From contig JACRJN010000131.1 of NCBI GenBank assembly GCA_016235675.1, positions 1,779 through 65,778 of the forward strand: a stretch of 64,000 nt of DNA, in the 5' to 3' direction. Shown piece after piece: positions 2,361 through 62,660 of the stretch. How positions within the stretch are numbered: the stretch's first letter is position 1; each line of letters starts with the position of its first letter. Source of the DNA: Candidatus Schekmanbacteria bacterium (lineage in GTDB: Bacteria > SZUA-182). The position numbers and the translations under genes are program-made. A model generated the notes under the pieces. It did no database searches. It had not been told where the DNA came from and worked only from the letters and a program-made list of their open reading frames with translations.

Positions 2361-4112
2361 ATGCAGGCAGGAAAAATAATCAAAGTGGCTGGCCCTTTGG
2401 TGGTTGCCGACGGCATGGTTGACGCCAAGATGTATGACGTGGTCAAAGTCGGCCTTGAGGAACTGATCGGCGAGATTGTGGAAATCAAAGGCGATAAAGC
2501 CTCGATTCAGGTCTACGAGGAAACGGGAGGCATCGGCCCCGGCGATCCGGTGATCACTACCGGTATGCCGCTTAGCGTCGAGTTAGGCCCCGGATTGCTG
2601 CAAAGCATTTACGACGGTATTCAGCGCCCGCTGGAATTGATCTACGGCAAGGTCGGGGATTTGATCACCCGCGGGGTTAACGTCCCCAGCCTGAATCGGG
2701 AAAAGAAATGGGCGTTTACTCCGACTGGCAAAACGGGTGATAAGGTGCAGGCCGGGGATATTTTGGGCACGCTGCCGGAAACCAGGGTTATTACCCATAA
2801 GGTGCTGGTTCCGCCCGGAATCGAGGGAGAGATCGTTAAGATTGCGGCAGGCGGCGAATACACCATTACCGATACCATCGCCCGCATTAAAACCAAAAAC
2901 GGTGAACAGGATATTTGTATGCTGCAAAAGTGGCCGGTGCGTATCAGCCGTCCCTTAAAGGGTAAGCTTTCGCCCAAAGAGCCGCTTTCCACCGGACAGC
3001 GCATTATCGACACCCTCTTTCCCCTGGCCAAGGGCGGAACGGCTTGTGTTCCCGGCCCCTTCGGTTCAGGCAAGACCGTAGTGCAGCATCAGTTGGCCAA
3101 ATGGGCATCTGCCGAGATTGTGGTTTATATCGGCTGCGGCGAGCGCGGCAACGAGATGACCGACGTTTTGATCGAACTGCCGGAGATCGAAGACCCCAGA
3201 ACCGGTGAATCGCTGATGCAGCGCACCGTTTTGATCGCCAACACCTCAAACATGCCGGTGGCCGCCCGTGAAGCCTCGGTCTATACCGGGATCACCCTGG
3301 CCGAATATTACCGCGATATGGGCTACCATGTGGCGCTGATGGCTGATTCCACCTCCCGCTGGGCGGAAGCCTTGCGCGAGATGTCGGGACGTCTGGAAGA
3401 GATGCCCGGAGAAGAAGGCTATCCGGCTTATCTGGCGACCAAGATCGCCGATTTCTACGAGCGCGCCGGTCGGGTCAACACCCTGGGCAGCAACGGCAGA
3501 GAGGGATCGATCAGCGTTATCGGAGCGGTTTCCCCTCCCGGCGGCGACATGTCCGACCCGGTGGTGCAGGCCACCCTCAAGGTGGTTAAGGTCTTCTGGG
3601 GGCTGGACGCCAATTTAGCCTACCGCCGGCATTTCCCCGCCATCAACTGGCTGCAAAGCTATTCACTGTATATGGACAACCTCAAGGATTACCTGACCGG
3701 AGAAATTGCCCGCGACTGGGTCACCATCCGCCAGAAAGCCATGGCGCTGTTACAGAAAGAGGCGGAACTGGAAGAAATCGTACGACTAATCGGCAAGGAC
3801 TCCCTCTCCCCTACCGATCAGCTAACCCTGGAAATCACCAAGATCATCCGCGAGGATTTTCTGCATCAGAACGCCTTCCACGCCCAGGACTCCTACACCT
3901 CGCTGAACAAGCAATATAACTTGCTGAAGCTGATTCTCACCGCCGAAGAACTGTTCCGCTCCGCAGTCGAAGCCAAAATTCCCTTAAAGCGCATCCTCTC
4001 CATCCCGGCCCTGGAAGAAATCGCCAAAGCCAAGTTTATCACCGAAGACAAACCGGAGGAGATCGAAGCCATCGGGCAGAGATTGAGGGAGCAGGTAGGG
4101 GGGTTGAAGTAA
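2361..4112 (+). CDS. ntpA: V-type ATP synthase catalytic subunit A
   Basis: 583 aa. Walker A GPFGSGKTV, GCGERGNEM and SRWAEALREMSGRLEEMPGEEGYPAYL motifs. Confidence 0.97.
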   Translation: MQAGKIIKVAGPLVVADGMVDAKMYDVVKVGLEELIGEIVEIKGDKASIQVYEETGGIGPGDPVITTGMPLSVELGPGLLQSIYDGIQRPLELIYGKVGDLITRGVNVPSLNREKKWAFTPTGKTGDKVQAGDILGTLPETRVITHKVLVPPGIEGEIVKIAAGGEYTITDTIARIKTKNGEQDICMLQKWPVRISRPLKGKLSPKEPLSTGQRIIDTLFPLAKGGTACVPGPFGSGKTVVQHQLAKWASAEIVVYIGCGERGNEMTDVLIELPEIEDPRTGESLMQRTVLIANTSNMPVAAREASVYTGITLAEYYRDMGYHVALMADSTSRWAEALREMSGRLEEMPGEEGYPAYLATKIADFYERAGRVNTLGSNGREGSISVIGAVSPPGGDMSDPVVQATLKVVKVFWGLDANLAYRRHFPAINWLQSYSLYMDNLKDYLTGEIARDWVTIRQKAMALLQKEAELEEIVRLIGKDSLSPTDQLTLEITKIIREDFLHQNAFHAQDSYTSLNKQYNLLKLILTAEELFRSAVEAKIPLKRILSIPALEEIAKAKFITEDKPEEIEAIGQRLREQVGGLK

Positions 4113-4742: not shown

Positions 4743-4771
4743 ATAAATAAAACTCAAGGAGGTGAGCACCC

Positions 4772-5323
4772 ATGCAGGGTTTGGCGATAAAGCAAAAAAA
4801 ATATACTTATCAGGACTATTTAAAAACCCCGGACGATATGCGGTATGAACTAATTGAGGGAGATTTAATAATGACACCGGCGCCATATATTCGACACCAA
4901 AGAATTTCCAGTAACTTGTTTTTCAAGATGAGAGATTTCACAAGCACCAATAATTTAGGCGAGGTTTTTTACGCTCCCTGCGATGTCTACTTAGACGATG
5001 AGAATGTTGTTCAGCCGGATATACTCTTCGTTTCCAAGGAGCGTCTGGAAATTATCACGGAAAAGAATATCCAGGGTGCGCCGGATTTGGTAGTGGAAAT
5101 TGTTTCGGAAGGAAATGCTTACCGGGACACCATACAGAAAAAAAGACTATACGCCCGTTTCGGGGTGAAAGAATATTGGATAGTGGCACCGGGGGAAAAG
5201 ATGATCGAACAATATCATTTGAATAAGCAGGGTTACCAATTGATTAGGACTTATTATCATGAGGATCATCTCATATCCCAGGAATTGCAGGATTTCACGA
5301 TTGAATTGAGGGAGGTTTTTTAA
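4772..5323 (+). CDS. Uma2 family (DUF820) endonuclease
   Basis: 183 aa. YELIEGDLIMTPAP, QPDILFV and APDLVVEIVSE..YRD...K..LYARFGVKEYW motifs. Confidence 0.85.
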   Translation: MQGLAIKQKKYTYQDYLKTPDDMRYELIEGDLIMTPAPYIRHQRISSNLFFKMRDFTSTNNLGEVFYAPCDVYLDDENVVQPDILFVSKERLEIITEKNIQGAPDLVVEIVSEGNAYRDTIQKKRLYARFGVKEYWIVAPGEKMIEQYHLNKQGYQLIRTYYHEDHLISQELQDFTIELREVF

Positions 5324-5415: not shown

Positions 5416-6816
5416 ATGCCGAAAGAATACCGAACTGTGGCCTCGGTTTCCGGACCGTTGATTTTAGTGGACAAGGTAGAAAGCATTAAATACGAAGAAC
5501 TGGTGGAAGTGGAACTGCCCGGCGAACAAATCCGTCTGGGCAAGGTACTGGAGGTCTCAGGAAATACCGCCCTGGTGCAGCTTTTCGGTACATCTACCGG
5601 CATCAATATCTATCAGAGCAAAATTCGCTTTCTGGGCAAGGGGATTGAACTGGGGGTTTCTCCCGATTTATTGGGACGGATTTTCGACGGCCTGGGACGC
5701 CCGATCGACAATGGCCCGCGCATTATCCCGGAAAAACGCCTGAACATCAACGGGAATCCGATCAACCCCTATGCCCGCGATTATCCCTCGGAGTTTATCC
5801 AGACCGGTATTTCCACCATCGACGGCCTAAATACACTGGTGCGCGGACAAAAATTGCCCATCTTCTCAGGTGCCGGTCTCCCGCACTCCCAAATGGCGGC
5901 CCAAATCGCCCGTCAATCCAAGGTTTTGGGCAAGGAAGAAGCCTTTGCCGTGGTCTTTGCCGCCATGGGCATCACCTTTGAGGAATACGAGTTTTTCCGC
6001 CAAGATTTCCAGAAATCCGGTGCGCTGGAACGCTCGGTGCTGTTCGTCAATCTGGCCAATGACCCGGCGGTAGAACGCATCGCCACCCCGCGAATGGCCC
6101 TGACCGCCGCTGAATATCTGGCATTTGAGAAGGATATGCACGTTCTGGTTATCTTAACCGATCTGACCAATTATTGCGAAGCCCTGCGCGAGGTTTCCGC
6201 CGCCCGCAAGGAAATACCCGGTCGCCGCGGTTATCCCGGTTACATGTATACCGACCTGTCCACGATTTATGAACGCGCCGGACGCATCAAGGGCAAAAAG
6301 GGATCGATCACCCAGATTCCCATTCTTACCATGCCGGAAGATGACAAAACCCATCCCATCCCGGATTTGACCGGTTATATTACCGAGGGACAAATTATCC
6401 TGGGACGGGCGATGCACCGCAAAGGCATCTATCCCCCAATCGATGTCTTGCCGTGTCTTTCCCGCTTGCGGGATAAAGGCATCGGCGAGGGCAAGACCAG
6501 GGAAGACCACGCCGGCTGGTCGAATCAATTGTTTGCCGCCTATGCCAGGGGTAAAGAGTCTGAAGAATTGGCGGTTATATTGGGTGAATCGGCTCTATCG
6601 GCAGCCGATAAAACCTTCCTTAAATTCGCCCTGGAATTTGAGCGGCGGTTTGTACAGCAAGGGGCCTATGAAGACCGGGCTATCGAGGAAACTTTGGCTA
6701 TCGGCTGGGAATTAATGGCGGCACTTCCGAAAGCCGAACTCAAACGGGTGAAAGAGGATCATATCGCTAAATATATGCCGGCGGGGAAAGAATTAGGCTT
6801 GAGGCTTGAGGCCTGA
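5416..6816 (+). CDS. ntpB: V-type ATP synthase subunit B
   Basis: 466 aa. [21 protein letters not shown] and [21 protein letters not shown] motifs. The last codons (GLRLEA) are encoded by the GGCTTGAG tandem repeat. Confidence 0.97.
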
Positions 6817-20356: not shown

Positions 20357-20484
20357 TAATTGAGGCACTTTTCTTGCAGTAACATTGCTAACTATAAATT
20401 AACGGTACAGGCTTGTAACGGGGGGCTGGTTTTTTTCGAGCCTCGCAAGCCTGGAAACAGCAAATTTCAAACAGGAGGTTCGGA

Positions 20485-21495
20485 ATGGAAGGACAAACAT
20501 TAAGCTTGGCAGCGCATTTGCGGGACGAGCAAAAAAAGAATCCCAAAATCACCAATGGATTGATTAGTTTGTTGGGCGAGATGGCCTCAGCGTCCAAAGC
20601 TATTTCCCGCGACGTTAACCGGGCGGGATTGGTGGGTATTCTGGGACTGGCCAACAAGGTCAATGTCCAGGGGGAGGAAGTAAAAAAACTGGACGAATAC
20701 TCCAATGAGATCGTCAGAGCGCAGATGAGCAAAAGCGGGCAGGTTTGCATCATGGCCTCGGAGGAAGTCGATAACTCCATGCCGGTCGATGAGGGCTGCG
20801 AAGGCCCGTATACCATTGCCTTCGATCCGCTGGACGGCTCATCCAATATCGACGTGAACGTCAGTATCGGCACCATCTTCTCTATCCATCACAAGATCAG
20901 CCCCGGCACAAAGGGAACCGATGATGATTTGCTGCAACCGGGCAATAAGCAGGTCTGCGCAGGCTACGTACTGTACGGCTCAAGCACCATGCTGGTCTAT
21001 ACCGCGGGCTCTGGTGTACACGGCTTTACCCTGGATCAGGGCGTGGGCGAATTCTATCTGTCCCATCCCAACATGCAGATCAAGCCCAAGGGGGATATTT
21101 ACAGCATCAACGAGGGGAACTACCTCTATTGGGACAAAAACACCCAAAAATATATCGACTACCTGAAGGCCGAAGACAAGGCCACCAAGCGGCCCTATAA
21201 GGCGCGCTATGTCGGATCACTGGTGGCCGATTTCCACCGCACCCTGATCTACGGCGGCTTGTTCCTCTACCCCATGGACTACAAAGACCCGCAAAAGCCC
21301 AAGGGCAAGCTGCGCCTTCTATACGAAGCCGCACCCATGGCCTACGTCGTCCAGCAGGCCGGAGGCTACGCCAGCACCGGTTTTGAAGCGATCCTGGATA
21401 TTAAACCGACCGGACTGCATCAACGGGTGCCGCTAATCATCGGCAGCGTGGAGGATGTGAAGCAGGCGGAGAAATTTATTCAGAGGAAGGCGTAA
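20485..21495 (+). CDS. fbp: Fructose-1,6-bisphosphatase class 1
   Basis: 336 aa. FDPLDGSSNIDVN, GYVLYGSSTMLV and LRLLYEAAPMAY motifs. AGGAGG RBS upstream. Confidence 0.93.
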   Translation: MEGQTLSLAAHLRDEQKKNPKITNGLISLLGEMASASKAISRDVNRAGLVGILGLANKVNVQGEEVKKLDEYSNEIVRAQMSKSGQVCIMASEEVDNSMPVDEGCEGPYTIAFDPLDGSSNIDVNVSIGTIFSIHHKISPGTKGTDDDLLQPGNKQVCAGYVLYGSSTMLVYTAGSGVHGFTLDQGVGEFYLSHPNMQIKPKGDIYSINEGNYLYWDKNTQKYIDYLKAEDKATKRPYKARYVGSLVADFHRTLIYGGLFLYPMDYKDPQKPKGKLRLLYEAAPMAYVVQQAGGYASTGFEAILDIKPTGLHQRVPLIIGSVEDVKQAEKFIQRKA

Positions 21496-55320: not shown

Positions 55321-55382
55321 CAATGGACAATTGACAGTTTTTCGTTATCCATTATCCACTATCCACTATCCACTATCCATTG
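55308..55382. repeat. GGACAATTGACAAT x2 and CCACTAT heptamer x3 tracts
   Basis: CAATGGACAATTGACAATGGACAATTGACAG overlaps the stop of 53998..55320. Followed by CCATTATCCACTATCCACTATCCACTATCCATTG. Confidence 0.85.
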
Positions 55383-55399
55383 AATTAACAACAATATTT

Positions 55400-57136
55400 A
55401 TGTCCATAAACAAACCTAAAAATTGGGATTTTTACCCCCCGAATCCCGAATTGCAAAAGAAACTCCAATCGGAATTAGGGATAAAATCCCGATTGGCCGA
55501 TCTGATGATCAACCGCGGCATCGAAACCGTCGCCGACGCCGGGATTTTTTTATGGGGGACTTTAGCGGAATTACACAGCCCATTTATCATGAAAGGGATG
55601 ACCACCGCCGCCGGAATCATTCTTAACGCCGTCCGGCAAAAAGATAAAATCTGTGTTTACGGGGATTACGACGTCGATGGATTAACCGGTGTGGCTTTGC
55701 TGTTCAAAACCCTGAGTTCGCTCCAGGCCGACGTGATCTTTTACATCCCCCACCGGCTGGAAGAAGGTTACAGCCTGAATTGTCAGGCGCTGGACGAGAT
55801 CAAAAACGCCTCCGTCAATTTAATCGTAACCGTGGACTGCGGCATCACCTCCTGCAACGAAGTCAATTACGCCAATAAATTGGGGATGCAGGTAATTATC
55901 AGCGACCATCATCAATTGGGAAATAATCTGCCTGCCGCCGCGGCCATTCTCAATCCCTTACAACCCGGATGTCCCTATCCTTTTAAAAAACTGTCCGGCG
56001 TAGGTATTGCCTTGAAATTAGCGCAGGCCATATTGGCGCAATCCGGTTTAATCCGCGAGGCGGCTGATCTTTTAAATAATGATTTGGACCTGGTAGCCCT
56101 GGGAACAATAGCCGATATGGTACCTTTAATGGGGGAAAACAGGATTTTAGTAAAATATGGTCTTAAACAATTGACAAATTCCTCCAAATCAGGTATAAAA
56201 GCATTAAAGCAGGTTACAGGTCTGGCTATTGACCAGGAAGTTAGCGTAGTAGACGTAGCATATAAGCTAGCCCCCCGGTTAAATGCCACCGGCAGAATGA
56301 GCGACCCTCAGCAGGGGTTGGAACTGCTGGTATCCAATAACGACACTGAAAGCGCTAATCTGGCTAAGCAAATAGAAGAAAACAATGTTCAGCGCAAAGC
56401 TATCGAAGGGATAATCCTGGAACAAGCCAGGACGCAATTGCAGCAAGCTATCGAGAACAACGCTCCGCCAAAAGCGATTATTTTAGCGGCCGAGGGCTGG
56501 CATATCGGCGTAATCGGAATCGTCGCCTCCCGCATAGTGGAAGAGTATTTCCGCCCGACGATCATTATCGGGCTTACATCGGGTGTCGGCAAAGGTTCAG
56601 GCCGAAGTATCCGTAACTTGCACCTGCAGCAAGTTTTATTGAAATGTCAGGATTTACTGCTGGAGTTCGGCGGCCATGAAATGGCGGCGGGCTTGAGTAT
56701 TCTGGAAGAAAATATACCCCGGTTCAAAGAGCGCATCAATCAACTGGTGGAAGATTCTTTACAGGAAAACGACTTTATACCCAGCTATAATCTGGACGGC
56801 GTGGTGGAATTAAAAGAGCTGACCTTGTCGTTTTGGCAGGAAATACAATTAATGGAGCCGTTCGGCATAGGCAATCCGGCGCCGTTATATTGTGCACGCC
56901 ATTTAGAAATAATGCCGCCGCTGCGCTTAGTGGGCAATAACCATTTAAAATTGAAGCTCAGGCAAAACGACCTGACTATGGAAGCCATCGGTTTTAATAT
57001 GGGAGATTGGCTCTCATTTTTAAATACTCCGGGCAATAAATCGATAGATGTGATTTTCCGCCCCCAGTTGAATGTCTGGCAAGGCAAAGAGCAATTGCAA
57101 TTGTCCCTGCAGGACATAGTGCAGACCAGGGATTAA
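55400..57136 (+). CDS. recJ: Single-stranded-DNA-specific exonuclease RecJ
   Basis: VYGDYDVDGLTG, TVDCGI and ISDHH (DHH) motifs, and GGHEMAAG (DHHA1). ATG at 55400. Confidence 0.93.
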   Translation: MSINKPKNWDFYPPNPELQKKLQSELGIKSRLADLMINRGIETVADAGIFLWGTLAELHSPFIMKGMTTAAGIILNAVRQKDKICVYGDYDVDGLTGVALLFKTLSSLQADVIFYIPHRLEEGYSLNCQALDEIKNASVNLIVTVDCGITSCNEVNYANKLGMQVIISDHHQLGNNLPAAAAILNPLQPGCPYPFKKLSGVGIALKLAQAILAQSGLIREAADLLNNDLDLVALGTIADMVPLMGENRILVKYGLKQLTNSSKSGIKALKQVTGLAIDQEVSVVDVAYKLAPRLNATGRMSDPQQGLELLVSNNDTESANLAKQIEENNVQRKAIEGIILEQARTQLQQAIENNAPPKAIILAAEGWHIGVIGIVASRIVEEYFRPTIIIGLTSGVGKGSGRSIRNLHLQQVLLKCQDLLLEFGGHEMAAGLSILEENIPRFKERINQLVEDSLQENDFIPSYNLDGVVELKELTLSFWQEIQLMEPFGIGNPAPLYCARHLEIMPPLRLVGNNHLKLKLRQNDLTMEAIGFNMGDWLSFLNTPGNKSIDVIFRPQLNVWQGKEQLQLSLQDIVQTRD

Positions 57137-57138
57137 GG

Positions 57139-57265
57139 TTCACTTAAGACGTAGCGCAGGGCTTTAGCCCTGCTTATGGCGGCTTTGGTAGGCACTCCGG
57201 AGCAGACCTAAAGGTCTGCTCTACGTTAAGTGAACAGTCTGCGCTACGTTAAGTGAACAGTATTG
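57139..57265. mobile_element. R-A MITE-like element at the recJ/cytochrome junction (left TIR lacks its first 8 nt; right end partly duplicated)
   Basis: TTCACTTAAGACGTAGCGCAGGGCTTTAGCCCTGC...GCAGACCTAAAGGTCTGCTCTACGTTAAGTGAACAGT CTGCGCTACGTTAAGTGAACAGTATTG. Flanked by GGATTAAGG at 57130..57138 and 57266..57274. Confidence 0.75.
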
Positions 57266-57288
57266 GGATTAAGGAGGGGTTTGGGGGA

Positions 57289-58773
57289 GTGTTAAAAAAG
57301 CAATTATTTTTTAGATTGTCGCTGGTTGTCGTTTTGGGATTTTATTTTATATGGCCGAATATCTTTTCCTGGGCGCAGGAAGAACCTGCTGCGATAAAAA
57401 CAGACAAACCGGAATTTGTGGAACCGGGTATGAATCCCAATGAGAACATACCCACTATCGATCAATTTGTTGTCCCGTCGGATCTGGCGCCTGCCGTAAA
57501 GGATATGGCGCCGCAAAAAAAAGAATCCGAAGCGGGTAAAAAGATAGAATCCGAAGCGCCGACATTACCCTCCGGCCTTCTCCCGGACAAAACACCGGCA
57601 GCCGCTCCTGTGGCACCGGAGATGCAGCCTACTTTAACGGACTGGAATAAAGAAAATTTACTGAAATCATATAGCGATTTTATGAAAATGATGTCTCCGA
57701 AACGGGATGGGATCAAATTGGAAGCGCAAACAACGGAAGCACAAGATAATCCGATTTGGAAATTTCATAGCTGGCTGCAAGACCAACTGGCAATTATGGA
57801 ACAAACCGGCGGAGAAACCGCCGGCGGCAAAGGCGGCCTGGAAGAACTGTGTTTTGTTTGCCATAACGGTAAATTGGTAGTCAACCCTAACTTCTCCGGC
57901 GATTATACCAGTATCAAGGATGTTTTTCAACTCACCAGCCGCCATCCGGTAAGAGCTGCCGATAAATCCAATTTCTACGATCCGCTGAATCCGGATGACC
58001 CGACCAAATCAGACCCGACCTGGGAACGCAAACTACAATGTACTACCTGCCATAATCCGGCGGTAGTTACCGGAAAAACCAAGGACGGCGGTTATCCCTT
58101 AACCCTGCCTACCGATCCCGAAGTCACCTGGACGCAAAAATTAATCGACGGCTGGCCTACTTTGGATAATCCACCCTGGCCTCATGACACCCCGCCCCGT
58201 CCGATAGTCTACGGGCGCCCCTATGCGGATGATCCCAATCCCGATGTGCCGGGGGACGAAAAATTGGGCCCCGATGCCACGGAATTACCTAATTTTACCT
58301 CCTATTGTCAAACCTGCCACCGGCAAATTTCCGGACGTTACGGCGTGAGCAATAACTATTCCCGCTTAAAATACGATCCGATCCGCTATATCAAGGGAGA
58401 TGGCGGCGGCAATGTTTCAACCCATGGTTTAGCGCGCGGCAGGGAAAGCAATACCCCACATTTAAAATTAAGAGAACCATTCTACTCTTTAAGATGCGAC
58501 GCAGAGGGAAATGTAGTTAACAATCTTTATCTGGCCTGCGTCGATTGCCATGAACCTCATGGCTCTTCCAATGCTTTTTTATTAAGAACGAAGGTAAACG
58601 GTGTAGCGGGTGTAAAAGCCGGGTATGACGGTAAATTTTTTACTTTATGTTCTAAATGTCACATTGTCGCCAATCCCTGGCCGGGCGGGTATCCGCACGG
58701 GTCTCCGGGGGATATGGCGGAAAGATCATGTATCCAGTGCCATAACCATTCATCAGGGGGGGGGCGTTTCTAA
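57289..58773 (+). CDS. Secreted or membrane-anchored hexahaem c-type cytochrome
   Basis: GTG start after AAGGAGGGG. Hydrophobic N-terminus. Six CxxCH motifs: CFVCH, CTTCH, CQTCH, CVDCH(EPHGS), CSKCH, CIQCH. About 190 aa Pro/Glu/Ala/Lys-rich linker before the haem domain. Confidence 0.85.
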   Translation: MLKKQLFFRLSLVVVLGFYFIWPNIFSWAQEEPAAIKTDKPEFVEPGMNPNENIPTIDQFVVPSDLAPAVKDMAPQKKESEAGKKIESEAPTLPSGLLPDKTPAAAPVAPEMQPTLTDWNKENLLKSYSDFMKMMSPKRDGIKLEAQTTEAQDNPIWKFHSWLQDQLAIMEQTGGETAGGKGGLEELCFVCHNGKLVVNPNFSGDYTSIKDVFQLTSRHPVRAADKSNFYDPLNPDDPTKSDPTWERKLQCTTCHNPAVVTGKTKDGGYPLTLPTDPEVTWTQKLIDGWPTLDNPPWPHDTPPRPIVYGRPYADDPNPDVPGDEKLGPDATELPNFTSYCQTCHRQISGRYGVSNNYSRLKYDPIRYIKGDGGGNVSTHGLARGRESNTPHLKLREPFYSLRCDAEGNVVNNLYLACVDCHEPHGSSNAFLLRTKVNGVAGVKAGYDGKFFTLCSKCHIVANPWPGGYPHGSPGDMAERSCIQCHNHSSGGGRF

Positions 58774-59774
58774 TGACGAATGAACTTGTGTTCGGCAGTG
58801 GCAGTATCATAGGGAAGAGTAAACCCATCAGGCATCTGTTTGGTCTCATCCCTTATTTGGCTGCCCAGGAAAATCCTGTTTTGATTCAGGGCGAAAGCGG
58901 CACCGGCAAAGAGCTAGTGGCTACCGCCATACATTCTTACAGTCAGCGTTCTCTGTCGCCGCTGATTAAAGTCAACTGTTCCGCCATAGATGAAACCTAT
59001 TTAGATGTCGAGTTATTCGGCGGGGTAAAAGAAACAGGAGAGGGGAAAAAAGAGGTAGCGAAGGGGTTATTCGAAATCGCCGACGGCGGCACAATTCTCC
59101 TGGATTGTATCGATAAATTACCCCCGGCGGGACAGGAAAAGCTCTCCCAGGTAATGAGCGAACATAAAATTCACCCCTTAGGTGTTCCGGAGATTAAGAA
59201 TATTAATGTACGGGTCCTGGCCACCACAGAATCTTCTTTAGCGGAGGCTGTCGGCCAGGGGGCATTTAATGAAGGTTTATACAACCAACTGCAAAATAAT
59301 GTCATCAGTATGCCGGCACTGCGCAAATTCCGGGAAGATATACCCTTGCTTGTCAAGCACTTTGCCACTAAATACAGCAAAAAACATAATAAATCAGTAA
59401 AAGGCATTTCGGCTGAAGCCTTGTCTATCTTGATGGAATACGACTGGCCGGGGAATATCAAAGAATTAGAGGAATGTATCGAGCAGGCTGTGATCATTGA
59501 GGATTTGGAAATCATCCAGGCGCACAGTCTGCCCTATGATTTGTTCCATACGGCGGAAAGCGCCCGTCATCGCCTGGCGGAGGAATATAATCTGCGCCGC
59601 CGCTTGAAGGCATTCGAGCGTCAATTGATCTTGCGCGCTTTAAACGAAACCAAATGGAAGAAGAAAGAAGCCGCTCAGTTAATGGGCATCGATCAGCGCA
59701 ATTTGAGCTATTTCTTAAGAAAGCATCACATTACCGATCCGGCCACCAGGGAAAAAGAGCGCGGGTATCTATAG
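58773..59774 (+). CDS. Sigma54-activator-like AAA+ / Fis-HTH protein with degenerate catalytic and sigma54-contact motifs, no N-terminal sensor domain
   Basis: GESGTGKE Walker A is intact. Walker B is GGTILLDCI (Cys in place of Glu). ELFGGVKETGEGKK replaces ELFGHEKGAFTGA. FNEGLYNQL replaces FRxDLxxRL. WPGNIKELEE and the C-terminal HTH are present. Confidence 0.8.
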   Translation: MTNELVFGSGSIIGKSKPIRHLFGLIPYLAAQENPVLIQGESGTGKELVATAIHSYSQRSLSPLIKVNCSAIDETYLDVELFGGVKETGEGKKEVAKGLFEIADGGTILLDCIDKLPPAGQEKLSQVMSEHKIHPLGVPEIKNINVRVLATTESSLAEAVGQGAFNEGLYNQLQNNVISMPALRKFREDIPLLVKHFATKYSKKHNKSVKGISAEALSILMEYDWPGNIKELEECIEQAVIIEDLEIIQAHSLPYDLFHTAESARHRLAEEYNLRRRLKAFERQLILRALNETKWKKKEAAQLMGIDQRNLSYFLRKHHITDPATREKERGYL

Positions 59775-59829
59775 CAGGACAGGCGTCCCGCCGGAAATTA
59801 TAAAATATTGTAGGGGCGGGGGTTTCCCC

Positions 59830-59966
59830 CAATGCTGTTGACTTAAGACGTAGCGCAGGGCTTTAGCCCTGCTTAAGACGCGGCATTTGACCCCTGTGGC
59901 TGTAGCAGACCTAAAGGTCTGCGCTACATAAACATCAAAACAAAATTCCTTAAGTCAACAGCATTG
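59830..59966. mobile_element. 137-nt R-A MITE-like element (TIR CAATGCTGTTGACTTAAGACGTAGCGCAG / ...CTTAAGTCAACAGCATTG) inserted in the loop of a GTAG hairpin
   Basis: 11-bp direct duplication GGGGTTTCCCC at 59819..59829 and 59967..59977. The host hairpin GTAGGGGCGGGGG TTT CCCCGCCC spans 59810..59981. Confidence 0.8.
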
Positions 59967-59996
59967 GGGGTTTCCCCGCCCTTTAATTAACTTAAG

Positions 59997-60057
59997 CCGT
60001 AGCCGTAGTGCCAGGGCTTTAGCCCTGGAAATTCAGCCCTAAAGGGCTTTAGACTAC
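59997..60057. repeat. R-B doublet with tandem CCGTAG x2
   Basis: CCGTAGCCGTAGTGCCAGGGCTTTAGCCCTGG...CAGCCCTAAAGGGCTTTAGACTAC. Confidence 0.9.
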
Positions 60058-60069
60058 GAAATTTAAGAG

Positions 60070-60410
60070 CTTATCCGTAAATAACCGTTACCTTTGGTTT
60101 CCCCCTTTAGCAAAGGGGGATTAAGGGGGATTTGCAAATTGTAATTTCCATAAAGAATTTGGCAGCGTTCTCAATCAGAGACCCAAAGCGTCATTGCGAG
60201 GCAGCCTTATCGCCGAAGCAATCTCATCCACACGCATGGAGATTGCTTCGCTTCGCTCGCAATGACACTTCGGAGTCTCCCTATTTCTACGCTACCAAGA
60301 ATTTAATCTTTTAACAATATGTCGTGTTCGAATAATTCTTAAGGTTAGATTCAATTTGAAAATCTCCCCAACCCCTCTTTGCCAAAGAGGGAAAAGTTAT
60401 TTACGGATAT
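60070..60410. repeat. R-I element (CTTATCCGTAAATAAC arms, CCCCCTTTAGCAAAGGGGG / CCCTCTTTGCCAAAGAGGG hairpins) interrupted by an R-C long-form copy at 60159..60298
   Basis: An uninterrupted R-I relative lies at about 31540..31660. The R-C copy runs TTGGCAGCGTTCTCAAT...CTACGCTACCAA. Confidence 0.8.
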
Positions 60411-60521
60411 ATTCTAAGTCTTTCTATTTCTACGCGACAATTTTTAAATAAATATTCTCTGTGTCTCAGTGGCTCTGTGTGAAAAATTTCTCCTGAATTT
60501 TAATTTAGCACCTACCCCATT

Positions 60522-62222: not shown

Positions 62223-62292
62223 GTAGGGGAAATTTTGAAACACTCAAAAATATATACAAACCGACAATATTATGCTATACTTTAAAAATTAT

Positions 62293-62660
62293 GGGGGCGA
62301 CTGGTTTCGACGGGGCTATTGAACCTCCAACTGCATGTCGAGCATTCTACTGACTCGTAAATCCGGTGGAAAAACAATAAACGCAAACTACTATGGCGAA
62401 AGCCAATTAGCTTTAGCCGCCTAATTAGTGCGGCTTCGTCCACCCTGCTTCGCTGATGGAGCGGGATGTGGGCGGCATATACATCAGATAGCGGATCCGC
62501 TTCGCCTAAGGGCGGACGAGCGAAACTACACTTTGGCTGGCCTTTCTTTGATCCTGCCGCCGGGAGCGGAAAGAGGCGAGAAACAATCCAGCGGCTAAAC
62601 ATGTAGAAGTTGCCGGCAAGGTACTCTCGGACGCGGGTTCGATTCCCGCCGCCTCCACCA
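62293..62660 (+). ncRNA. ssrA: tmRNA (SsrA)
   Basis: 5' GGGGGCGACTGGTTTCGACGGGG. 3' GGACGCGGGTTCGATTCCCGCCGCCTCCACCA. Acceptor stem pairs GGGGGCG with CGCCTCC and includes G3:U. Candidate tag ORF GCA AAC TAC TAT GGC GAA AGC CAA TTA GCT TTA GCC GCC TAA at 62383..62424 (ANYYGESQLALAA). Confidence 0.95.

Follow-up and report, generated by a model that had tools for sequence, protein, structure and literature searches.

A sensor-less, degenerate enhancer-binding-protein homologue, probably independent of sigma54, encoded behind a hexahaem cytochrome gene of Candidatus Schekmanbacteria

In this report, we focus on a pair of overlapping genes found in a metagenome-assembled genome (MAG) of Candidatus Schekmanbacteria, and particularly on the regulator-like protein that the second of them encodes. 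The window, by which we mean the whole stretch of DNA that was analysed, is 64 kb long (64,000 nucleotides, nt). Open reading frame (ORF) calls across it place, on one strand and sharing a single base, the gene of a cytochrome with six CxxCH motifs and that of a protein of the enhancer-binding protein (EBP) family, the family of the sigma54-dependent AAA+ activators. The parts of the pair that matter most for what follows are listed here, the motif states of the EBP-like protein being taken from alignments.

57289 to 58773, plus strand: cytochrome ORF, GTG start at 57289, stop TAA at 58771-58773, 494 amino acids (aa)
58756 to 58764, plus strand: G9 run made of the Gly-Gly-Gly codons of a terminal GGGRF, internal Shine-Dalgarno sequence, 8 nt before the ATG of the EBP-like gene
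58771 to 58775, plus strand: TAATG stop/start overlap, with TAA at 58771-58773 and ATG at 58773-58775
58773 to 59774, plus strand: EBP-like ORF, ATG start, 333 aa
58890 to 58913, plus strand: Walker A GESGTGKE, residues 40-47, intact in the phmmer and clade alignments
59031 to 59048, plus strand: L1 loop, residues 87-92, with ETGEGK at the position of GAFTGA
59103 to 59108, plus strand: Walker B, D111-C112, DC in place of DE
59265 to 59291, plus strand: Arg-finger stretch FNEGLYNQL, residues 165-173, with both Arg replaced (N166 and Q172)
59460 to 59462, plus strand: K230 in GNIKELEE, at the place of the Arg of the canonical GNIRELEN
59604 to 59723, plus strand: HTH_8 (Fis-type) helix-turn-helix (HTH) DNA-binding domain, residues 278-317 (Pfam, 31 bits)

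The domain content of the EBP-like protein is that of an EBP reduced to its AAA+ and DNA-binding parts. Pfam assigns residues 12-176 to Sigma54_activat (PF00158; model positions 1-165 of 168, E 2.8e-43, 148 bits) and residues 186-266 to AAA_lid_14, ahead of the HTH_8 domain, and finds no domain N-terminal of Sigma54_activat in the 333 aa. As the ATG at 58773 is the earliest start codon downstream of the in-frame stop, the protein cannot be extended upstream into an N-terminal sensor. Nor does it hold any transmembrane segment, sensor domain or Cys cluster conserved across its clade.

The motif states were read from phmmer alignments to the solved EBPs ZraR (1ojl), NifA (9qq6), an NtrC-family protein (4l4u) and CapR (6iy8), in which all the motif stretches are free of gaps. 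In these alignments, KGAFTGA is paired with KETGEGK, FLDEI with LLDCI, and GRFRQDLYYRL with GAFNEGLYNQL. The original prediction, which was made by eye from this single sequence, had described a sensor-less protein keeping Walker A and the Fis-type HTH, and having lost GAFTGA, the Walker B Glu and both arginines of the FRxDLxxRL stretch. All of this holds: the motifs are not shifted relative to those of the solved EBPs, so the losses are genuine and not a matter of misalignment. A further loss, which was not on that first list, is the change from GNIRELEN to GNIKELEE, whose Arg we take to be sensor II; likewise, we presume that the altered positions correspond to E108, R162/R168 and R227 of PspF. 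Thus, from what characterizes a sigma54-dependent activator, the protein has the Sigma54_activat AAA+ domain but neither GAFTGA, nor the Walker B DE, nor the Arg fingers and the Arg of GN(I/V)RELEN. None of the EBP equivalogs of NCBIfam (PrdR, NifA, AtoC, ZraR, NorR, PspF, TyrR and others) is matched at its curated cut-off and all fall far below it, the top score being that of PrdR with 253 bits for a cut-off of 795.

These losses are better understood in the light of the relatives of the protein. It is 100% identical to a protein of a Candidatus Schekmanbacteria MAG annotated as 'sigma-54-dependent Fis family transcriptional regulator', and it has five orthologues (P0002-P0006) of 329-332 aa, with 63-68% identity. 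In a neighbour-joining tree, the six orthologues form a single clade within a larger family of sensor-less EBPs of ~332 aa, the other members of which retain GAFTGA, DE, both arginines and GNxRELxN. Within the clade, GAFTGA is lost in 6/6 members and so is the second Arg (replaced by Q/Y/C/Y/T/F), while the other positions vary from one member to another, with C/E/E/Q/N/Q for the Walker B Glu, N/R/R/R/N/N for the first Arg and K/R/K/K/R/R for the Arg of GNxRELxN. The L1 loop is only 18% identical in the clade, and of variable length, as against 66% identity in the intact sisters, and residues 98-176 follow the same trend (51-58% versus 67-77%). The opposite is true for the lid (67% in the clade versus 44% in the intact sisters) and for the HTH region (83% versus 61%). 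In this last region, GIDQRN and the YF behind it show no variation in either the clade or the intact sisters P0007-P0018, and the residues between show almost none.

The clade has dN values of 0.18-0.35 with saturated dS, and the two pairs that allowed a dN/dS to be calculated gave 0.07-0.08; when the window is compared with L001, the EBP-like protein is 68% identical, RecJ 60% and an RnfC-like protein 56%. The gene is therefore under purifying selection rather than decaying, and the constraint on it has moved from the catalytic and sigma54-contacting parts toward DNA binding. The protein of the window is the one that has degraded furthest, in a lineage whose catalytic constraint has been relaxed. 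This qualifies the proposal of a pseudo-ATPase that the original prediction had drawn from the simultaneous losses: the residue losses are real, but the full triple loss is confined to this genome, the Walker B and first Arg positions varying across the clade. The pattern looks like relaxed constraint following the loss of the coupling to sigma54, and not like a designed pseudo-ATPase state.

The promoters found around these genes also differ. Well-placed intergenic sigma54-like promoters of the TGGCA-N6-TTGC type are present at L006 and L008, the loci of intact sisters, whereas at the degenerate loci the matches to such promoters are found only within coding DNA and none is intergenic. In the window, the consensus is not enriched (27 matches for 28.6 expected), and no rpoN gene lies within its 64 kb. 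Altogether, we are fairly confident that the EBP-like protein no longer acts through sigma54, and the annotation of these proteins as sigma-54-dependent regulators is probably wrong. As a separate observation, an intergenic sequence of the window, AGGCACTTTTCTTGCA at 20363-20378 (plus strand), is one mismatch away from the -24/-12 consensus and stands ~105 nt ahead of the ORF at 20485, which may hint at a use of sigma54 by the organism.

Among the intact sisters, P0007 and P0008 have no cytochrome gene beside them and adjoin a response-regulator/PilZ gene. At L008, GCGCATA / ATATGCGCATAT motifs (3105-3125, 4763-4835 and 6150-6160) are found ~100 nt upstream of three sigma54-like promoters (3214, 4913 and 6254), one of which is upstream of the EBP gene itself and another before the adjacent response-regulator/PilZ gene; these motifs are a candidate enhancer of the intact sister EBP. 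They are absent from the sister locus L006 and from the intergenic DNA of the degenerate loci. Another intact sensor-less EBP, of 333 aa and 41% identical (GAFTGA, DE and both Arg present), is encoded at L012 (9031-10032, minus strand), 2 kb downstream of a cytochrome gene that is not coupled to any EBP, and on the opposite strand.

The family also contains a second, independent degenerate clade (P0021-P0048), with L1 loops of the SNLTES type and, in several members, DK, DM or DR at Walker B. Its members (P0021, P0022, P0026, P0028, P0029, P0031, P0034, P0041 and P0048) are sensor-less EBPs of 324-332 aa, with loops such as SNLTES, SAFIGD and similar. We looked at two of their loci, L015 and L016, and the L016 member, which has no receiver, is separated by 22 nt from the HAMP-PAS histidine kinase gene that precedes it. 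This second clade is not adjacent to cytochromes, so degeneration and cytochrome linkage are not generally associated. The loss of sigma54 function is thus recurrent in the sensor-less family, and the linkage to a cytochrome is particular to one clade.

In that clade, the linkage is strict. The EBP-like gene lies directly 3' of the orthologous cytochrome gene in 6/6 loci (the window, L001/L002, L003, L004, L005 and L017), always with a T(A/G)ATG overlap of 1 nt, which in the window is the TAATG already noticed by the first reading of the sequence. The cytochrome ends in GGGRF, and this ending is invariant in all 19 aligned members of its family, whether a gene lies behind or not. What changes is the choice of codons. 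In 6/6 EBP-linked loci the three glycines are encoded by GGA/GGG-GGG-GGG, which places GGAGGGGGG, a G9 run in the window, 8 nt ahead of the ATG, whereas in 6/6 EBP-less homologues the same codons are GGC/GGT-GGC/GGT-GGA/GGC/GGG, GGCGGTGGC being the synonymous alternative. The GGAGGGGGG Shine-Dalgarno sequence is therefore found in 6/6 EBP-linked and 0/6 EBP-less loci, and nothing argues more strongly for a use of the overlap than these synonymous codons. The cytochrome gene has a Shine-Dalgarno sequence of its own, AAGGAGGGG, which suggests that the organism uses canonical ones. A conserved stop/start overlap and a Shine-Dalgarno sequence inside the upstream gene, the two features of a translationally coupled pair, are both present.

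The DNA behind the pair differs between loci: fmt after 747 nt of repeats in the window; glycosyltransferase genes in L001; a peroxiredoxin fragment and a b-type cytochrome gene in L003; a b-type cytochrome gene, queH and a T2SS-F gene on the other strand in L004; and a peroxiredoxin-family (AhpC-TSA/Redoxin) gene on the other strand in L005. The pair is kept in 6/6 orthologues although this downstream DNA differs, and co-regulated expression, the most modest of the proposals first made for the two genes, is borne out by the conserved overlap and the internal Shine-Dalgarno codons. A scan of metagenomes added a single short locus only. The b-type cytochrome genes of L003 (4119-4919, minus strand) and L004 (2408-3199, minus strand) belong to PF01292, are 79% identical to each other and are found in 2/6 genomes; their product might exchange electrons with the hexahaem protein as its partner in the membrane, and no homologue of it was found in the window. 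The peroxiredoxin neighbours of L003 and L005 led to the consideration of a model after PexR, a peroxide-sensing EBP encoded next to ahpC (PMC12754779). This model was rejected: PexR senses through a GAF domain and depends on sigma54, and the two neighbouring peroxiredoxin genes match neither each other (tblastn) nor anything in the window. MphX (PMC3063778), another candidate for comparison, is not an EBP homologue.

The cytochrome that precedes the EBP-like gene is organized as follows.

57271 to 57279, plus strand: Shine-Dalgarno sequence AAGGAGGGG, 9 nt 5' of the cytochrome GTG
57289 to 57375, plus strand: predicted Sec signal peptide, residues 1-29 (MLKKQLFFR / LSLVVVLGFYFIW / PNIFSWA / QEE), read from the sequence
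57376 to 57648, plus strand: low-complexity linker rich in Pro, Ala, Glu and Lys, residues ~30-120, variable in length and sequence among homologues
57649 to 58770, plus strand: conserved haem domain, residues ~121-494, ~370 aa, from the family alignment
57850, 58039, 58306, 58537, 58648 and 58729, plus strand: starts of the six CxxCH motifs

An alternative GTG exists at 57253, and the start at 57289 is that of a database protein (P0121, 494 aa, 100% identity). The six CxxCH motifs (CFVCH, CTTCH, CQTCH, CVDCH, CSKCH and CIQCH) begin at residues 188, 251, 340, 417, 454 and 481, and six further His (H160, H219, H379, H424, H470 and H487) are invariant in the family alignment; together they would suffice for six bis-His haems. 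The putative signal peptide has an n-region MLKKQLFFR, a 13-residue hydrophobic core LSLVVVLGFYFIW and a c-region PNIFSWA, with a cut predicted before Q, and A-x-A|Q-like cleavage sites recur in the homologues. No lipobox Cys and no cytoplasmic tail were found in the sequence, and the cytochrome is thus probably periplasmic. The six motifs and the long disordered linker of the original prediction are both there; from its alternative of an exported or membrane-anchored protein, the export remains, by virtue of the signal peptide, and the cytoplasmic tail does not. With its CxxCH motifs, its distal His and an export signal read from the sequence, the protein has the attributes of a multihaem c-type cytochrome.

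Its family is narrow, with 21 close homologues at 54-72% identity and two remote matches. Pfam recognizes only the last ~75 residues, where Paired_CXXCH_1 (38 bits) and Cytochrome_C7 (35 bits) are above cut-off; sequence and profile searches gave no meaningful relative in the PDB. An AlphaFold2 model built on a 19-sequence alignment has a mean pLDDT (predicted local distance difference test) of 39 and a pTM (predicted template modelling score) of 0.23. The C-terminus of the family reads ...H(N/H)H(S/A/N/T)xGGGRF-stop (58756-58770 in the window, and the 3' ends of L009-L014). The invariance of GGGRF suggests a role in sorting, in processing or in contacting haem propionates; we know of no C-terminal signal that matches it.

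Upstream and downstream of the pair, the following features complete the locus.

55331 to 57136, plus strand: recJ (DHH, DHHA1 and RecJ_OB by Pfam)
57138 to 57252, no strand assigned: spacer between recJ and the cytochrome gene, with palindromes resembling repetitive extragenic palindromic (REP) sequences, GTAGCGCAGGGCTTTAGCCCTGC and AGCAGACCTAAAGGTCTGC, from repeat counts and the comparison of spacers
59775 to 60521, no strand assigned: 747 nt of non-coding DNA before fmt, dense in REP-like palindromes, from sequence scans

The gap between recJ and the cytochrome gene is 152 nt in the window, as against -4 to 41 nt in the relatives. The cytochrome gene follows recJ in every locus for which upstream DNA is available, that is, in 10 distinct loci (the window, L001, L003, L009-L012 and L018-L020), and the genes on either side of this recJ-cytochrome pair vary. 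The cytochrome is found without any EBP at eight other loci (L009-L013 and L018-L020), and the EBP-linked cytochromes are each other's closest relatives, with 67-77% identity. The cytochrome family is therefore older and wider than its pairing with the EBP, and its universal partner is recJ. The simplest history would be that the EBP gene arrived once, behind a recJ-cytochrome operon already in place. The hexahaem cytochrome, although probably periplasmic, is fixed behind the gene of a single-stranded DNA exonuclease. In front of recJ there is often a gene for an RnfC-like flavoprotein (window, L001, L012 and L019).

The REP-like family (GTAGCGCAGGGCTTTAGCCCTGC and the related AGCAGACCTAAAGGTCTGC) has 7 copies in the window (16018, 16891, 21599, 29925, 35920, 57151 and 59850) for 0 expected, with REP-like stretches also at 57201-57229, 59904-59932, 59819-59977 and 60013-60063. 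Its copies are concentrated between recJ and the cytochrome gene and in the 747 nt that follow the EBP-like gene. The idea of a mobile cassette, raised by the direct repeats 57138-57181 and 59837-59880 (93% identical), was rejected since these belong to the dispersed REP-like family. In the 747-nt gap, neither an Rfam family nor a sigma54-like promoter was found, nor any shared dyad. Further downstream, a transfer-messenger RNA (tmRNA) gene lies at 62293-62660 (plus strand; Rfam, 195 bits), with the tag peptide ANYYGESQLALAA, and a 106-aa minus-strand ORF that overlaps it (62282-62602) is probably spurious.

We can now consider what this gene arrangement could achieve. With a probability of about 55%, we see here an atypical, sigma54-independent regulator of the EBP family, which binds ATP without hydrolysing it and has been appended to a recJ-cytochrome operon. 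The gene would have been added once, at the 3' end of the operon, in a sublineage related to Candidatus Schekmanbacteria, and it would be translated from a Shine-Dalgarno sequence made of the last three Gly codons of the cytochrome gene, across the 1-nt overlap. Its product, which retains the P-loop, the Walker B Asp, the lid and the Fis-type HTH, is expected to bind both nucleotide and DNA. Deprived of GAFTGA, of the Glu and of the arginines, and with an unconstrained charged loop in place of GAFTGA, it would hydrolyse little or no ATP and would not remodel the sigma54 holoenzyme. By analogy with TyrR, PhhR, HupR, NtrX, VpsR and the NtrC of Rhodobacter and Caulobacter, it may act as a DNA-bound repressor or activator at sigma70-type promoters. 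As there is no sensor domain, its activity would be set mainly by the amount of protein, and possibly by ATP occupancy, this amount being itself set by read-through translation from the cytochrome gene. The cytochrome being exported, the two products would be related by co-expression and not by physical contact.

Several points weigh against this reading. The six linked loci go back to a single ancestral event, and the 6/6 counts are therefore not independent trials. No target promoter or operator came to light, and no perfect 6-nt dyad (spacer 0-12) is common to the intergenic regions of any two degenerate loci. P0002 and P0003 keep the Walker B DE and the first Arg, and some members of the clade may still hydrolyse ATP. 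Finally, the protein does belong with the atypical EBPs by its EBP homology and its altered GAFTGA loop, but every characterized one has, to our knowledge, an N-terminal regulatory domain, and the absence of any such domain (REC or ACT/PAS) is the chief departure from those described; for a sensor-less member, no route by which a signal could come in has been described.

Other explanations give the cytochrome a more direct part. The original prediction had suggested an uncharacterized redox-linked module, in which the redox or maturation state of the cytochrome is relayed to the EBP-like protein, as in a sensor-effector pair. The adjacency and overlap of the two genes in six genomes with a reshuffled downstream context would fit such a module, and so would the next genes at L003, L004 and L005, which encode a b-type cytochrome (Ni_hydr_CYTB) and/or peroxiredoxin-family proteins. 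However, neither the window nor L001 has these neighbours, and the EBP-like protein is devoid of transmembrane segment, sensor domain and clade-wide Cys cluster. The cytochrome, for its part, has a signal peptide and no cytoplasmic segment; with one protein in the periplasm and the other in the cytoplasm, there would be no contact after export. Moreover, the eight EBP-less loci mean that the cytochrome does not need the EBP, and its invariant linkage is to recJ. We consider this module quite unlikely, and nothing of it beyond co-expression is retained. One may also imagine that recJ, the cytochrome and the EBP-like protein make up a functional system, in which the latter reads the production or maturation of the cytochrome (through haem, apo-cytochrome or the coupled translation) and tunes a regulon accordingly. 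This we find very unlikely; if true, it would represent a new sensor-free signal input for the EBP scaffold.

The remaining explanations concern the EBP-like protein alone. It could be a competitor with a dominant-negative effect, a dead EBP that occupies enhancer sites or forms mixed inactive hexamers with intact paralogues, so that a sigma54 regulon is damped whenever the recJ-cytochrome operon is expressed. The identity of GIDQRN and YF between the degenerate clade and the intact sisters is in line with shared sites, these sisters are placed among sigma54-like promoters, degeneration arose at least twice in the family, and hetero-oligomeric sensor-less EBPs do exist, as is the case for HrpR/HrpS. 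Nevertheless, there is no intact paralogue in the window and none is known in the same genomes, the ATATGCGCATAT-like enhancer motif of L008 does not recur in the intergenic DNA of the degenerate loci, and the Arg-finger interface through which subunits communicate is itself degraded. We thus regard a competitor as unlikely. That the protein is still a sigma54 activator, through a non-canonical L1 loop and a residual ATPase, could be argued from the strong similarity to Sigma54_activat (148 bits) and from the Walker B DE and first Arg of P0002 and P0003; an L1 loop that is 18% identical and of variable length is incompatible with a conserved sigma54 contact, though, the second Arg is lost in 6/6 members and no intergenic -24/-12 promoter is found at the degenerate loci, all of which makes this highly improbable. 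The last possibility is scarcely credible: that the gene is a decaying, non-functional remnant, as the loss of several catalytic residues might suggest, or that a -1 frameshift on the G-run, which lies 8 nt before the overlap and from which such a shift would lead directly into the EBP frame, gives a cytochrome-EBP fusion. A remnant is at odds with the dN/dS of ~0.07, the 83% identity of the HTH and the full-length ORFs in six genomes. As for the frameshift, the run is GGAGGGGGG in 5/6 loci, a Shine-Dalgarno sequence rather than a good slippery heptamer, and the fusion would be topologically absurd, since it would make Sec export a DNA-binding domain that belongs in the cytoplasm.

The practical consequence of a sigma54-independent regulator at this place is modest, and the finding does not open any long-standing question. 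The Shine-Dalgarno sequence lodged in synonymous Gly codons is, for its part, a clean natural example of codon selection for translational coupling.

How does this protein compare with the systems already described? On the cytochrome side, the likeness is limited to the Paired_CXXCH_1/Cytochrome_C7 families (DmsE/MtrC-type), with which the protein shares its C-terminal haem pairs; its scores with the models of DmsE and GSU2203 are far from reaching the cut-off. On the EBP side, PspF and HrpR/HrpS are sensor-less 'group V' EBPs of about 330 aa, with only the AAA+ and HTH parts, which are active sigma54 activators controlled in trans (by PspA and HrpV). PspF is similar to the protein of the window (E 1e-40), but the latter is unlike all three in being without the sigma54 loop and the catalytic residues. 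The closest solved structure by sequence is that of ZraR (1ojl; E 6.3e-63, residues 11-311), with the same layout of AAA+, lid and HTH; it differs by its GAFTGA, DE, FRQDLYYRL and GNIRELEN, and by the REC domain of ZraR.

The nearest functional parallels are found among the atypical EBPs, in which a sigma54-specific AAA+ motor has been turned into an ordinary transcription factor. VpsR, which has no GAFTGA, an ND at Walker B and no detectable ATPase, acts with the sigma70 RNA polymerase, and it is listed with TyrR, PhhR, HupR, HsfA and NtrX as an atypical EBP (PMC6158489). The joint loss of GAFTGA and Walker B residues is thus already known from VpsR (PMC6158489). The two proteins are alike in their AAA+ and HTH of the EBP family, their lack of GAFTGA and their non-consensus Walker B; they are unlike in that VpsR has a REC domain, responds to c-di-GMP and has ND at Walker B, while here we find DC, no N-terminal domain and the loss of both arginines of the Arg-finger region. 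An R/N after Walker A, as in the c-di-GMP site of the FleQ type, was not seen in the protein of the window, with no formal test made for it. TyrR/PhhR, HupR, NtrX and the NtrC of R. capsulatus and Caulobacter are also alike, as their GAFTGA is lost or deleted and they act at sigma70-type promoters, which for Rhodobacter and Caulobacter NtrC goes with the absence of the L1 loop (bioRxiv 10.1101/2023.06.06.543975). In some of these proteins, it is the binding of ATP rather than its hydrolysis that matters. They differ from the protein of the window in carrying ACT/PAS or REC domains, when here the AAA+ domain begins after 11 residues. With 159 bits for the TyrR model of NCBIfam and 253, 244 and 234 for the canonical PrdR, NifA and AtoC, the protein is no closer to TyrR than to canonical EBPs by score, and its loss is therefore an independent one. 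The clade described here adds a sensor-less case to the atypical EBPs, and one in which the decay can be traced step by step, from GAFTGA and the second Arg, lost in 6/6 members, to the Walker B Glu, the first Arg and the Arg of GNIRELEN, lost in some.

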